Source of the DNA: a virus
Taxonomy: Duplodnaviria > Heunggongvirae > Uroviricota > Caudoviricetes
Length of the DNA stretch: 18,569 bases
Direction: 5' to 3' (one strand)
Virus record (IMG/VR): IMGVR_UViG_2660237930_000004
Below, piece by piece: positions 5,131 through 16,161 of the stretch. Both the position numbers and the translations under genes were made by a program. Below the pieces are notes generated by a model, which was not told the origin of the DNA, ran no database searches, and saw only the letters and a program-made list of their open reading frames with translations. How positions within the stretch are numbered: the first letter of the stretch is position 1; the number at the start of each line of letters is the position of its first letter.

Positions 5131-6044
5131 CGTATTGGGGTTATAAAATTCAGCTGATACTGATGCCTGCAGTGGCTTTCTTCATCACAACAACCAGCAA
5201 ATCGCTGATACTTGCTGTGGGATACCAACCATTTACCCACCATGCTGATACAGAAAACTCCAGTGTCATTACACCACTGCCTGCAGGCATATCAATAACA
5301 CCCGTGTAAATCAGAGTATTATCCAGAGCCGTTCGGTTATAAATTTCAGCCCCGTTTTTCTTCACTATCAGGCGGCATGACGAATAAGTATCGCTATTCT
5401 CCCGCTCATGTCTGGCACCGCAGAAAGCCACCGCTGGAATAACAATTTGCCGGTCAAACGACTGATCGTCATAAACCCTGACGGTAATAGTCCCTGATGG
5501 CCACCGCTCCGGTGCACGGGAGTCCCGGGGGAAAGCTTTGCCCACTGTTTTAACGAGATCGCCTTCAATCTGGTTCGCGGACAGTTTTCCCAGAACCCGA
5601 CAGTTCTCGTTAATCGTGACATTATTGAGCGTCCCGGAGTTCGCATTCACGTTACCGCTGATATCGGCATTTTTCGCCGTCAGCCGCCCGTCCGGTGTCA
5701 GGGAAAATACCGGAGGATTGCCGCCACTGGTAATGGTGGGAGCCGTCAGATACTTCAGGAACACTTCGTTCATGAATATCTGGTTGCCCTGCGCCACAAA
5801 CATCGGCGTTTCATTCCCGTTTGCCGGGTCAATAAACGCGATACGGTTAGCGGCAACCAGGAACTGGCTCAGTTTGCCTTCCTCCGTATCCTCCATACTA
5901 AGGCCAAGCCCCGCGACATAATGCCTGCCGTCTTCGGTCTGCTCAATTTTGACGCCCCACATGGCATTCCATTTATCGTTGGCGTCCTTCCACTCTTTCG
6001 AAAACTCCTCCAGTTTGCTGGCGTTATCCTCCGTCAGCTCGACT

Positions 6045-6121
6045 TTTTCCAGCAGCTCCTTGCCGAGATGGGACTTTTTCGCCAGCAGCTCCTTTTCCAG
6101 CAGCTCCTTGCCGAGATGGGA
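6045..6121. repeat. 29-bp exact direct repeat with 48-bp period inside J (in-frame repeated [10 protein letters not shown] peptide)
   Basis: Positions 6045..6073 and 6093..6121 are identical; protein reads [35 protein letters not shown]. Confidence 0.7.
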
Positions 6122-6268
6122 TTCGGTTATCTGGCCTTTGAAAAAATCCAGGTAACCTTCCGCATCATCGCTCGGCTGACCAACAGCCTCCACGAATGCC
6201 GATTTGCCAACGGTGTTCACACTGCGGATATAAAAGTAATAATCATGGCCCGGTTTGATATTGATACT

Positions 6269-6324
6269 GGCAGCTATCCAGTACAGCGCCGTACCAGGCA
6301 GCTATCCAGTACAGCGCCGTACCA
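6269..6324. repeat. Perfect 28-bp tandem duplication (2 copies) inside J
   Basis: ggcagctatccagtacagcgccgtacca at 6269..6296 is repeated exactly at 6297..6324; 28 is not a multiple of 3. Confidence 0.95.
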
Positions 6325-8681
6325 AGATAGCGGGCTGTGGTCTCAACCTGCCTGATATCGGTAATCCGCTTTTCCGAGAACCAGAACTCAAACTGTACCG
6401 TCGGATCATAAACCGCAAGATGCGGCGTGGCAGTTATCTGAAAATAGCCCGGCGTCAGCTCAATCCGCGACGGCGCTGCCGGTGCGGCAATCCGGAACGA
6501 TACCGATGCCGGATCGCCCTGCTGTCCCCACGCATTTACCGCCCGGACCGTCAGCGTGTAACGCCCCAGCGCCAGTTGCCTGAAGCGGTATGTGGTTTCC
6601 GTCGTCCTGGCCGTGCTGACCAGCCGCTCACTGCCGTCATCCGCTGCCACGGTCAGGCGAAGCATAAAGCTCACCCCCTTCACCACCTTCGGCGTATCCC
6701 AGCGCGCCAGCACCTGATACTCCCCGCTGTCTGAGGTGACTTCGGCAGTCAGGTGCTGCACCGCAGGCGGCGTGACACCATTCACCGTGCCGCTCTGGTC
6801 GCCGTCAAAGTGCGCCCCGTTATCCACGATGGCCTCTTTTTCCGGCACATGCTGCACGGCGGTGATGGCATACGTGCCGTCGTCGTTCTCACGGATACTC
6901 ACGCAGCGGAACAGGCGCTGGCGCAGCGTCGGCAGCTTCAGCCCCCATACGCTGTATTCAGCAACACCGTCAGGAACACGGCTCACTTTTACCTTCACGC
7001 CGTCGGTGACGGACTGAACCTCCACGCTGACCGGATTGCCACTTCCGTCAACCAGACTTATCAGCGTGGTACCGGAGGATGGCAGCGTGATTTCACGGTC
7101 GAGCGTCAGCGTCCGGGTCTGGCTGTTCACCGCCAGCACGCGCCCGCCGATGCTGATACCCGCATAGTCATCATCACAGATTTCAATGACATCCCCCGGT
7201 ACATGGCGAAGCCCTTCCGCACCCACGCTGAAGTCCACGGTCTGCGTTTCCAGCAGTTCCGTTTTAATCAGCCACAGCCCGGCGCGGTGCGCCTGCCCCC
7301 GGCTGGTACAGCCAAAGGCATCCATCTTCGTGACGTTACGACCGTAACGGGCAATGGCCTGCGTATCTTCAACAAGCTCTGTCGCCGTCTCCCAGCCGTT
7401 GTTCGGGTCAATCCAGTTCACCTCAACGGCATTATGGCGGTCCTTCAGGGCGCTGAAGCTGTAGCGGAACGGCGCGCCATCATCCGGCATCACCACATTA
7501 CTGCGGTTATAGGTCCACACCTTATCGGAGGGTCGGTCCTGCACGAACGTCAGCGTCTGCCCGTTCCATACCGGCATACAGCGCATCGCCGAGCAGAAAT
7601 CACTGAGCACATCCCACGCCTTGCGCTGTGTGGTCAGCCAGGCATTACAGGTGATGCGCGGCTCCGTGCCACCAAAGCCATCCGGCACCGACTGGTCGCA
7701 ATTCTGGCCGATGACATACAGCGCCCATTTGTCCACATCCGCCGCACCGAGACGCTTCCCCATGCCGTAGCGCGGATGGGTCAGCATATCCCACAGACAC
7801 CAGGCCATGTTGTTGCTGTATGCTGGCTTAAACGTTCCGTCCCAGATACCGCTGTATTGTCGCGTCTGCGGGTTATAGTTCGACGGCACCTGCAGAATGC
7901 GCCCGCGAAGATGATAATTACGACTCACCTGCTGGCTGCCGAACTGCTCCGAGTCCACCTGTACGCTGACCAGTGCCGTGTTCGGGTAGCACTGTTTCAC
8001 ATCGATGATTTCGGTGTATGACGACCAGAGCGTTTTGTTCTGCAGCTGGTCTGTGGTGCTGTCCGGCGTCATCCTGCGCATCCGGATATTAAACGGGCGC
8101 GGCGGCAGGTTATCCACCACCACCGAGGCCAGATACTGCGAGGTGGTTTTGCCTTTAATGGTGATGTCTTTTTCCGTCACCCAGCCACCGTTACGCTGTA
8201 TCTGAACCAGCAGGCGGACTTCCGACGGATTCCGGTCCCCCTTTGAGGTGGTTTCCACCAGTGCCTGCACACCGAAGGTAAAGCGCAGACGGTCGATGTT
8301 TGCAGACGTGATGGTCCGGGTAATCGGCGTGTCGTACTTCACTTCCGTACCCAGCACCGTCTCGGAGCCGGAGGATTCAAATCCCTCCGGCGGTGTCTGC
8401 TCCTGCTCACCTGCCCGGAACACCACCGTGACACCGGAGATATTGGTATTCCCCTCACTGTCCAGCACCGGCGTACTGTTCAGCAGCACACTTTTTAATC
8501 CGTCCACCGGACCTTCAATCGGCCCTTCACTGATGGCGTCTATCACGCTCAGCATCTGGGATGATTTCAGGTTGTCCTTCGCTTCGCGCGGGGTATGCCC
8601 CTTACTGCTGCCTTTACCCATTCCTCACGCTCCAGAAACGACAAAACCGCCCTGAGGCGGTTTCACACAAAACATTCTGCA

Positions 8682-14400: not shown

Positions 14401-14415
14401 CGCTGACTCTCCGGA

Positions 14416-15156
14416 TTAACTGGCGGTGACGGTGATTTCTGCAACCGCAGCAAACTCACCATTACCGGATACAACCGGAATGTTGACCTTGCCTGCAGCA
14501 ACGCCGTTCACGGTGATGGTCATACCACTGACCGACACGGTGGCTTTTGTTTTATCCGCTGACACCGCACGGAAGCTCTTGTCGGTTGCGCCTTCCGGCT
14601 GGAATGCCACGGTCAGCGTCGTGCTCTGCCCTTTCACTACGGAAGCACTGGCTGGCGTTACCGTCATGCCGGTGGCCGCTGTTACCGTGCTGCGATCTTC
14701 TGCCATCGACGGGCGTCCCACATTGGTGACCTTCACCGTGCGGGTGATCACTTCCTTCGCCGTCACCGCTTTACCGATACTGCTGACCCAGCCACGGAAC
14801 ACATCGACCGTGCCGTTCGGGAAGCGGATTTTATAGGCACGGGTATCACCTTCATTAAACCACGCCAGCAGCGCCTGCTGCCCCTGCTCTCCGGGCATCC
14901 ACGCCAGCGTGAAGCTGGTATCTCCGGCTGATTTCTGCCCCTGCCCGGTCGCAGTCCAGTCCGCATCCTCATCATCGAGATAACTGTCGTCATAGGACTC
15001 AGCGGTCAGTTCGCCGGGCGTCAGGTCTTTAACTTTTGCCAGACGCGACCAGTCAACGTCTGAAAGCGGGGTCGCATAAGGGTCACCGTTCCCCTTATAA
15101 ACCCATAGTGTGGTCCCGGCCCCTTTCACCGGCATTGTAGGATTTGGTACAGGCAT
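14416..15156 (-). CDS. V: Major tail tube protein V
   Basis: 246 aa from the ATG at 15154..15156 ([22 protein letters not shown]...) with a GAGGA RBS. The track ORF starts 10 codons upstream, judged a spurious extension. The C-terminal part resembles an Ig-like domain region as in lambda V. Confidence 0.9.
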
Positions 15157-15163
15157 ATCGTCC

Positions 15164-15586
15164 TCACATTTCATAGGTAATGACATACGTCAGATCGGCT
15201 GAACTCCACAGGCCCGCATCATCGTCGCGTCGGTAGTCATAGCCACTGGCCACCATACTGGTGATCAAATCTGACAGTGCCGGAATATCGCTCATCACCG
15301 GATAAATCCGGGACTCCATCCACGAATCCAGCTCTGAATCCGGCACCTGAGCAGGCAGCTCTGAATCCGGCACCTGAGCAGGCAGGAAAACTTCAATATG
15401 CAGCTCCGCCTGCCAGGTATCGCTGTCCAGCTCTTCGCCCGTGTATTCAGCGCCGGTGAGATAAACGGCAATTGCCGGAAAATCCGCCTCATCAAAAACA
15501 GCGGGGCGACCATCAAAAAGCGTCGCCCCGGTGTCATGCTTCTCCAGTGCATCCAGTACGGCTGCACGGAGTTCAGTATGTTTCAT
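15164..15586 (-). CDS. U: Tail terminator protein U, with a 9-aa in-frame duplication
   Basis: 140 aa ([36 protein letters not shown]...); contains [19 protein letters not shown] from the 27-bp tandem duplication. Lambda U is 131 aa by my recollection. Confidence 0.9.
15331..15384. repeat. Perfect 27-bp tandem duplication (2 copies) inside U
   Basis: gctctgaatccggcacctgagcaggca at 15331..15357 is repeated exactly at 15358..15384; in frame. Confidence 0.95.
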
Positions 15587-16161
15587 CGCTTTATTACCAT
15601 TCTCAGTTGATGCTGCAGCGCATAGCCCAGCTCTTTCGGAAGACGCTCACGCCGTATCCGTTCAATATTCTGTTTAAACGCCGTGGTCAGTGGCACCGCC
15701 ATCGGGATTTTCACCACATCAATGGGGTAACGGTTTTTCCCGGCCACACGCTGCATAACATGCCAGCGGCCATTTTTCAGTTGCTGAATAAACGCGCCGG
15801 GAATACGACGGTTTCCCACCACAAGCACGCTGCCGCCACCTTTCAGGGCTGAACGCTGCCCCTTTTTACGACGCCTGCGTCGGGACAGGACAATCCGCGC
15901 GTTACCCAGCTTTATTACGGGCAAATCCCCCCGGTTAACCTTGATTCTGGCCTGCGGATTTTTAACCGTGGCCCTTTTCAGCCTGGCCCTTTCCTTTACC
16001 AGTTTCCGGCGTACCTTTGTCTCACGGGCAACCTGTGACGCCGACTGCGATATCGCGGATGAAGCAACGCGGTTAATGGCCATTGCGGCGGCACCAGGCA
16101 CCGCCGTTTTGCTGATACGGCTGAGGTTTTCAACGGCCTGCTCAAGACCTTTTATGGCCAT
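15583..16161 (-). CDS. Z: Tail completion protein Z
   Basis: 192 aa, recognised as lambda Z from memory (MAIKGLEQAVENLSRISKTAVPGAAAMAINR...); 4-nt overlap with the U start. Confidence 0.9.
   Translation of the reverse strand: MAIKGLEQAVENLSRISKTAVPGAAAMAINRVASSAISQSASQVARETKVRRKLVKERARLKRATVKNPQARIKVNRGDLPVIKLGNARIVLSRRRRRKKGQRSALKGGGSVLVVGNRRIPGAFIQQLKNGRWHVMQRVAGKNRYPIDVVKIPMAVPLTTAFKQNIERIRRERLPKELGYALQHQLRMVIKR

Follow-up and report, generated by a model that had tools for sequence, protein, structure and literature searches.

The IMG/VR virus record IMGVR_UViG_2660237930_000004 (18,569 nucleotides, analysed at its full length and called the window below) corresponds to bases 13421-31989 of contig AOQL01000047.1 (31,990 bp) in the draft Escherichia coli assembly GCA_000397425.1. 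It carries the late operon of a lambda-like prophage, in which the tail genes U, J and I contain short duplications and a scrambled patch. Our comparisons indicate that the duplications, the scrambled patches and a set of private T>G substitutions are most likely errors of one low-quality draft assembly. The lesions are present in the sequence file and most likely absent from the organism, whose underlying biology appears to be that of an ordinary, intact lambda-like prophage late operon beside sitABCD, essentially identical to that of strain UPEC132. Perfect tandem duplications occur six times in 26.5 kb of AOQL01000047.1 and not once in a total of 1.45 Mb of comparable loci, an excess of more than 100-fold that is peculiar to GCA_000397425.1.

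Duplications and scrambled patches in the tail genes

Repeats were located with Tandem Repeats Finder and a repeat finder, and their effects on proteins were read against the same genes of strain UPEC132 (NZ_CP040456.1). A preliminary description of this DNA had listed a 27-bp repeat in U, a 28-bp repeat in J, a 29-bp repeat at 48-bp spacing in J and a frameshift in I, and all four are present, the three repeats where it had placed them. The tail terminator gene U (PF06141, Phage_tail_U; 15164..15586, minus strand) contains a perfect 27-bp tandem duplication at 15329-15382 (minus strand; unit CAGCTCTGAATCCGGCACCTGAGCAGG) with 3 nt of microhomology (CAG) on its right. This duplication is in frame and gives the protein a second LPAQVPDSE, so that U has 140 aa instead of 131; the rest of it is identical to U of UPEC132.

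The gene J, whose product has 1131 aa in relatives (where U has 131 aa), bears two lesions. The first is a perfect 28-bp tandem duplication at 6269-6324 (minus strand; unit GGCAGCTATCCAGTACAGCGCCGTACCA) with no microhomology on either side, which shifts the frame after residue 775 and splits J into two open reading frames (ORFs). The N-terminal fragment (6243..8621, minus strand; 792 aa) consists of J residues 1-775 followed by a frameshifted tail, and the C-terminal fragment (5150..6220, minus strand; 356 aa) represents J residues 792-1131 together with an insertion of 16 aa. That insertion is the product of the second lesion, a complex, in-frame net insertion of 48 bp at 6045..6121 (minus strand) in the C-terminal part of J, where exact 29-nt copies at 6045-6073 and 6093-6121 surround a 19-nt spacer, CTTTTTCGCCAGCAGCTCC, which is a noisy copy of neighbouring sequence. 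The direct repeat at 48-bp spacing was reported around 6032-6121, and its exact core is 29 nt.

In the tail assembly gene I, a scrambled patch at 9019-9028 (minus strand) replaces the reference CCTGAAAAAGACC with CCGAGAAAAAGCACC, and the net gain of 2 nt shifts the frame and splits I into ORFs 8996..9331 and 8682..9014 (minus strand). The tape measure gene H has a 3-nt insertion (AAG on the plus strand) at 12577..12579 (gene on the minus strand), which gives the protein an extra Leu following residue 330; this change is private to AOQL01000047.1. Examples of the junction sequences are GAATCCGGCACCTGAGCAGGCAGCTCTGAATCCGGCACCT and TCCAGTACAGCGCCGTACCAGGCAGCTATCCAGTACAGCG.

Lesions of the same kind in chromosomal genes

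The near-identical complete genomes place window base 1 directly after sitD of the chromosomal sitABCD operon. The stretch that we compared spans contig bases 5439-31990 (26.5 kb), including about 8 kb left of the window (bases 5439-13420), read via 10-kb flanks, with bluR, ycgX and sitABCD, all of which we take to be single-copy chromosomal genes. Alignment to UPEC132 reveals a 24-bp tandem duplication at the end of bluR (contig 7833), a 34-bp tandem duplication in ycgX that causes a frameshift (contig 8420), a 32-bp duplication with 1 filler base in sitA (contig 10084), an 18-bp tandem duplication in sitC (contig 12075) and a 27-bp tandem duplication in sitD (contig 12586). Scrambled, insertion-rich patches are found in sitB (contig 11415-11453, +9 nt) and at the end of sitD (contig 13383-13389, +3 nt). 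None of the lesions in bluR, ycgX and sitA-D is present in UPEC132 or FDAARGOS_1261, and their density is equal to or above that in the prophage tail genes.

SitC and SitD receive insertions of 6 and 9 aa in hydrophobic stretches that are presumed to span the membrane, a segment of SitB is scrambled, and the Sit insertions measure 6-11 residues when the binding protein SitA is counted. Damage of this severity to SitB, SitC and SitD, if the lesions were real, counts in favour of an artefact. The preliminary description had confined the cluster to the tail genes; it in fact extends past the left edge of the window, through chromosomal genes. The cluster is a property of the contig, not of the tail genes or of the prophage, and is probably a property of the whole assembly.

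Comparison with near-identical genomes

Two complete genomes supply the unaltered state of each site. Against window bases 1-11000, FDAARGOS_1261 shows 99.2-100% identity in every 500-nt block, lesions aside; UPEC132 is 99.6% identical to window bases 10900-18569 and also matches the remaining contig bases 5439-31990. The preliminary description had proposed a comparison with the same prophage in sister strains. The near-identical strains UPEC132 and FDAARGOS_1261 are approximately 99.97-100% identical around each site and hold the sequence in single copy.

Over the 26.5 kb, the contig differs from UPEC132 by 13 insertions, 0 deletions and approximately 30 substitutions, and is otherwise about 99.97% identical. 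Of these substitutions, about 20 have another difference no more than 15 nt away, and most of those 20 belong to the scrambled patches. Six of the duplications are perfect, and two more are perfect apart from filler. No microhomology (0 nt) flanks the 28-bp duplication in J, the 27-bp duplication in sitD or the 34-, 24- and 32+1-bp duplications; the U duplication has 3 nt, and the 18-bp duplication in sitC has 5 nt. By inspection, the duplicated units have no common sequence motif.

To put these counts in perspective, perfect tandem duplications with a unit of 12-60 nt were scanned for in several backgrounds. Shuffling the contig 20 times yielded none, and none turned up in the corresponding locus of three complete genomes (103.5 kb) or in 80 related lambdoid IMG/VR loci (1.34 Mb, apparently mostly from isolate-genome assemblies). 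The suggestion that so many short duplications exceed chance is borne out by their absence from the shuffles and from the comparison loci, and the suggestion of a shared cause is also right.

Searches for the lesions in other genomes

Queries that span both copies of a duplication proved misleading, as single-copy genomes were returned as "100% covered" and the record spans of 39, 36 and 58 nt showed that the unduplicated state had been counted twice. We therefore used four concatenated junction-only probes, for which a single-copy genome is unable to supply a 28-nt seed (51 nt across the J spacer and 41 nt across the I patch). The four lesion junctions gave 0 matches in 5,426 complete E. coli genomes and 50,697 phage records. 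Similarly, an exact-pattern scan of IMG/VR for the U and J 28-bp junctions gave no match, nor did an exact-pattern scan of GTDB representative genomes for the J 28-bp junction. Under identical search settings, 36-58-nt pieces of the unduplicated forms were recovered from 1,700-3,500 genomes. The preliminary description would have been overturned had each duplication been conserved in unrelated lambdoid phages; the junctions were found in no other lambdoid prophage or phage.

At the protein level, sister strains were sought by exact look-ups of U (140 aa), the C-terminal J fragment (356 aa), H (855 aa) and the stf product (799 aa) among 153 billion indexed gene positions, and each was found on AOQL01000047.1 only. 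An exact cluster look-up likewise placed the 792-aa J fragment on one contig. According to the cluster look-up, U and this J fragment have no NCBI protein accession, which suggests that GCA_000397425.1 was left unannotated.

An aberrant 16S rRNA in the same assembly

Another contig of GCA_000397425.1 offers indirect information on the rest of the assembly. In an analysis of 948 E. coli 16S rRNA sequences, AOQL01000076.469.2061 was the sole one beyond the 99th percentile of distance from the centroid (preprint 10.1101/2025.09.04.674223). The interval concerned, 469-2061 of AOQL01000076, spans 1,593 nt. A normal E. coli 16S rRNA has approximately 1,542 nt, and the excess of about 50 nt is the amount that two lesions of the kind seen on AOQL01000047.1 would give. 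Short-read drafts normally collapse the seven rRNA operons into one consensus, so a real 16S lesion would have to sit in most of the copies, which is very unlikely. A search of the literature on this whole-genome shotgun prefix returned the 16S outlier study as the single relevant paper, with no genome announcement or assembly method.

Untrimmed joining as the proposed source of the lesions

Genome assemblies are known to acquire false tandem duplications where contig ends overlap (Rhie et al. 2021, PMC8081667). We infer a comparable process as the most likely mechanism here, in which neighbouring sub-contigs or reads would have overlapped by less than the assembler's threshold, or would have had noisy ends, and the pieces would have been butt-joined or gap-filled with the overlap kept. 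A clean overlap would then be written as a perfect tandem duplication of the size of the overlap (18-34 nt). One noisy end would give a duplication with filler, such as the 32+1 nt in sitA and the 29+19 nt in J, and two noisy ends would give a short, insertion-rich scrambled patch, as in sitB, sitD and I. Joining without trimming would only ever add bases.

This single step would account for the identical copies, the absence of microhomology in 5 of the 7 clean cases, the sizes of 18-34 nt, the filler cases, the insertion-rich patches, the lack of deletions, the indifference to genomic compartment and the privacy of the lesions to one assembly. Three properties expected of false duplications are present: the lesions are absent from independent assemblies of a near-identical lineage; they affect genes of any function or compartment (bluR, ycgX and sitA-D, with the 16S rRNA on contig 76 as an indirect case); and they add sequence only, in identical copies. 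Among the three causes put forward in the preliminary description, an artefact of assembly or polishing has the strongest support.

The false "homotype" duplications described by Rhie et al. (2021, PMC8081667) resemble the present ones in the tandem double writing at an untrimmed overlap, in a size bounded by the read or the overlap, and in their absence from independent assemblies. Despite this resemblance, the published cases come from long-read vertebrate assemblies and are approximately read-sized, whereas those reported here are 18-34 nt long and come from a bacterial draft of the 2013 era. Unlike the published cases, the contig also shows scrambled, insertion-rich patches and T>G changes, and its joins contain no Ns.

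Private substitutions

Read on the plus strand, nearly all isolated substitutions that are private to the contig are T>G. They number seven, besides one more that belongs to the I patch, against 0 private A>C changes. Within the window they are found at 3756 (E221D in stf), at 7527 and 7530 (two changes 3 nt apart in J, both synonymous), at 12527 (H348P in H), at 13310 (Q87P in H) and at 15071 (N29T in V); the seventh lies left of the window at contig 8985. At 15071, 50 of 84 related loci have the reference T and 0 have G, and none of the six window alleles occurs in any of the 84 loci. Synonymous changes number 2 and non-synonymous changes 4, too few to be informative. Taken alone, this strand-asymmetric T>G spectrum resembles either a mutT signature or a dye-channel error. 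Sequence-specific Illumina errors in GGT contexts are not supported as a source, with only 2 of the 8 changes in such a context.

Observations that weigh against an assembly artefact

Several observations count against an origin in assembly. One concerns reading frame. False duplications should have lengths indifferent to it, and 9 of 12 insertion events are multiples of 3 in length, with 5 of 5 in sitABCD among them (binomial P of approximately 0.004). A frame-blind joining error would not give such lengths, which look like the outcome of purifying selection on real mutations. This in-frame bias lowers confidence in an artefact, without decisively favouring any of the rivals that we tested. 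A translation-aware contig-ordering step could in principle place joining errors in codon steps, although this is speculation.

The T>G changes are a second difficulty: T>G is the base change of a mutT mutator, and random consensus errors drawn from both strands should be less asymmetric. The 80 IMG/VR loci are also free of such lesions, so the error would have to be peculiar to the pipeline behind this assembly. Furthermore, we presume that the extra 50 or so nucleotides of the 16S rRNA are lesions of the same kind, and the artefact itself is deduced from assembled sequences and their comparison.

Alternative explanations

The explanation that survives best after an assembly artefact is that the lesions are real mutations of a hypermutable strain, a short-duplication mutator with, for example, a flap defect in the 5' nuclease of DNA polymerase I, perhaps combined with a mutT-like defect, in which selection purges frameshifts from useful genes. 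Such a strain would explain the very features that fit an artefact poorly. The bias toward multiples of 3 (9 of 12 events, all five in sitABCD) would reflect this selection, and the three out-of-frame events fall in the dispensable ycgX, J and I. A:T>C:G is the base change of mutT mutators, which is what the T>G substitutions on one strand would represent. Yeast rad27 mutants reportedly accumulate duplications of 5-108 bp, a range that includes the 18-48 bp seen here, and E. coli polA mutants are said to behave as their counterpart. Mutants of rad27/FEN1 and of the polA 5' nuclease also resemble the contig in having numerous short tandem duplications, tens of bp in size, and in favouring insertions.

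The difficulties of this explanation begin with the density of the lesions. About one insertion per 2 kb extrapolates to approximately 2,000 per genome, among them the 6-11-aa insertions in SitA and in those stretches of SitC and SitD that are presumed to span the membrane. Such a load is hard to square with viability of the isolate or with selection that preserves function, and the density is orders of magnitude above the flap-endonuclease signature. Duplications from flap defects are typically flanked by direct repeats of 3-12 bp, whereas most of those examined here have no such repeats (0, 0, 0, 0, 0, 3 and 5 nt, that is, 0 nt in 5 of the 7 clean duplications). In addition, there are 0 deletions, the assembly has an aberrant 16S rRNA as well, and no sister isolate or independent assembly of public reads carries the lesion-bearing proteins. 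We consider real hypermutation unlikely. Its most explicit form, an extraintestinal-type E. coli that is a natural duplication mutator with approximately 2,000 duplications of 18-48 bp and strand-biased A:T>C:G changes, caused by polymerase I 5'-nuclease and mutT-type defects under in-frame selection, is quite unlikely. To our knowledge, no natural E. coli isolate with a flap-defect duplication phenotype has been described, and a natural bacterial duplication-mutator phenotype would be new if it were true.

Polishing or mis-mapping is a very unlikely source, in which reads from paralogous lambdoid prophages would have corrupted the consensus of this copy. Many E. coli genomes do contain several copies of the lambdoid tail genes (a median of 3 matching places per genome, at most 15), and the contig ends within the head genes, as expected at a repeat boundary. 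However, mis-mapping mixes alleles and does not make perfect tandem copies of local sequence, lesions are also found in sitABCD, bluR and ycgX, taken as single-copy, and the private T>G alleles, seen in 0 of 84 related loci, were not borrowed from the paralogues sampled there.

Real, local slipped-strand duplications in a decaying prophage under relaxed selection are highly improbable. With J and I disrupted, this copy could produce no working tail, as would befit a prophage in decay, and the 27-bp duplication in U does have 3 nt of microhomology. Nevertheless, the flanking single-copy chromosomal genes have an equal or higher density of lesions, the remainder of the sequence is about 99.97% identical to the intact copies of UPEC132 and FDAARGOS_1261, so that there would have been almost no time to decay, and decay would bring deletions and point mutations too, not insertions alone. 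The preliminary description had offered both relaxed selection and slipped-strand events as causes. The former is at odds with the same lesions in bluR, ycgX and sitA-D and with an intact prophage in near-identical strains. The latter fits poorly, as slippage calls for a short direct repeat at both ends of the unit and flanking microhomology is absent (0 nt) from most duplications, including the 28-bp one in J.

Finally, conserved functional repeats of lambdoid tail proteins, such as motifs of U and J, are refuted and have a negligible probability: although some tail fibre genes do hold real coding repeats, as the stf-like gene of the window does (3385-4003), the U and J repeats are not found in homologues of unrelated lambdoid phages, with their junctions in 0 of the 5,426 E. 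coli genomes and 0 of the 50,697 phage records and the IMG/VR scans for U and J 28-bp empty, while the single-copy forms occur in thousands of genomes and one of the duplications breaks the frame of J.

Implications for the use of this assembly

Taken at face value, the contig would yield "pseudogenised" J and I genes, a novel U protein of 140 aa, a J protein with a 16-aa insert and altered SitA-D proteins, each of which is most likely spurious. These products are already present as singletons in large protein collections. The features reported here suggest inexpensive flags for such errors, namely perfect tandem duplications of 18-35 nt without microhomology, insertions without deletions, and an equal density of both inside and outside mobile elements. 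GCA_000397425.1 is best treated as unreliable at the level of individual bases.

Gene content of the window and other observations

Every long ORF of the window is read from the minus strand, and their succession is that of the lambda late operon: D, E, FI, FII, Z, U, V, G, T, H, M, L, K, I, J, lom and an stf-like fibre gene. Along them we identified the Pfam families HDPD, Phage_cap_E, Minor_tail_Z, Phage_tail_U, Phage_TAC_2, Phage_tail_T, TMP_2, Phage_min_tail, Phage_tail_L, NLPC_P60 and Lambda_tail_I, the J domains, and Ail_Lom. The gene order and the matching protein families identify a lambda-like late (head-tail) operon, and the segment Z-U-V-G-T-H-M-L-K-I-J-lom-stf agrees with that of lambda in both respects. 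The differences from lambda, namely a U that is 9 aa longer, a split J with 16 extra residues and a split I, are private to AOQL01000047.1. The contig stops within the head genes; in UPEC132, two genes of the same prophage, iss (serum survival) and one for an ompC-like porin, are located downstream of these.

A slippery heptamer of the lambda type, GGGAAAG, lies at 13996-14002 (minus strand), where G (13978..14400) overlaps T (13562..13996), which is the expected place for the programmed -1 frameshift that gives the G-T fusion. A further copy of GGGAAAG is found at 9878-9884.

The repeats of the stf-like ORF (2019..4424, minus strand) are imperfect coding repeats of 42 and 189 nt, and the zone that contains them is open in two frames, as ORFs 2019..4424 and 3290..4129. 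In relatives, the Prokaryotic Genome Annotation Pipeline (PGAP) divides the collinear stf region into three partial genes, though the alignments are without indels there.

Another IMG/VR record, IMGVR_UViG_2541047924_000003, also has a length of 18,569 nt, yet only 5 of 185 sampled 100-mers are common to it and the window, and the equal size is a coincidence.

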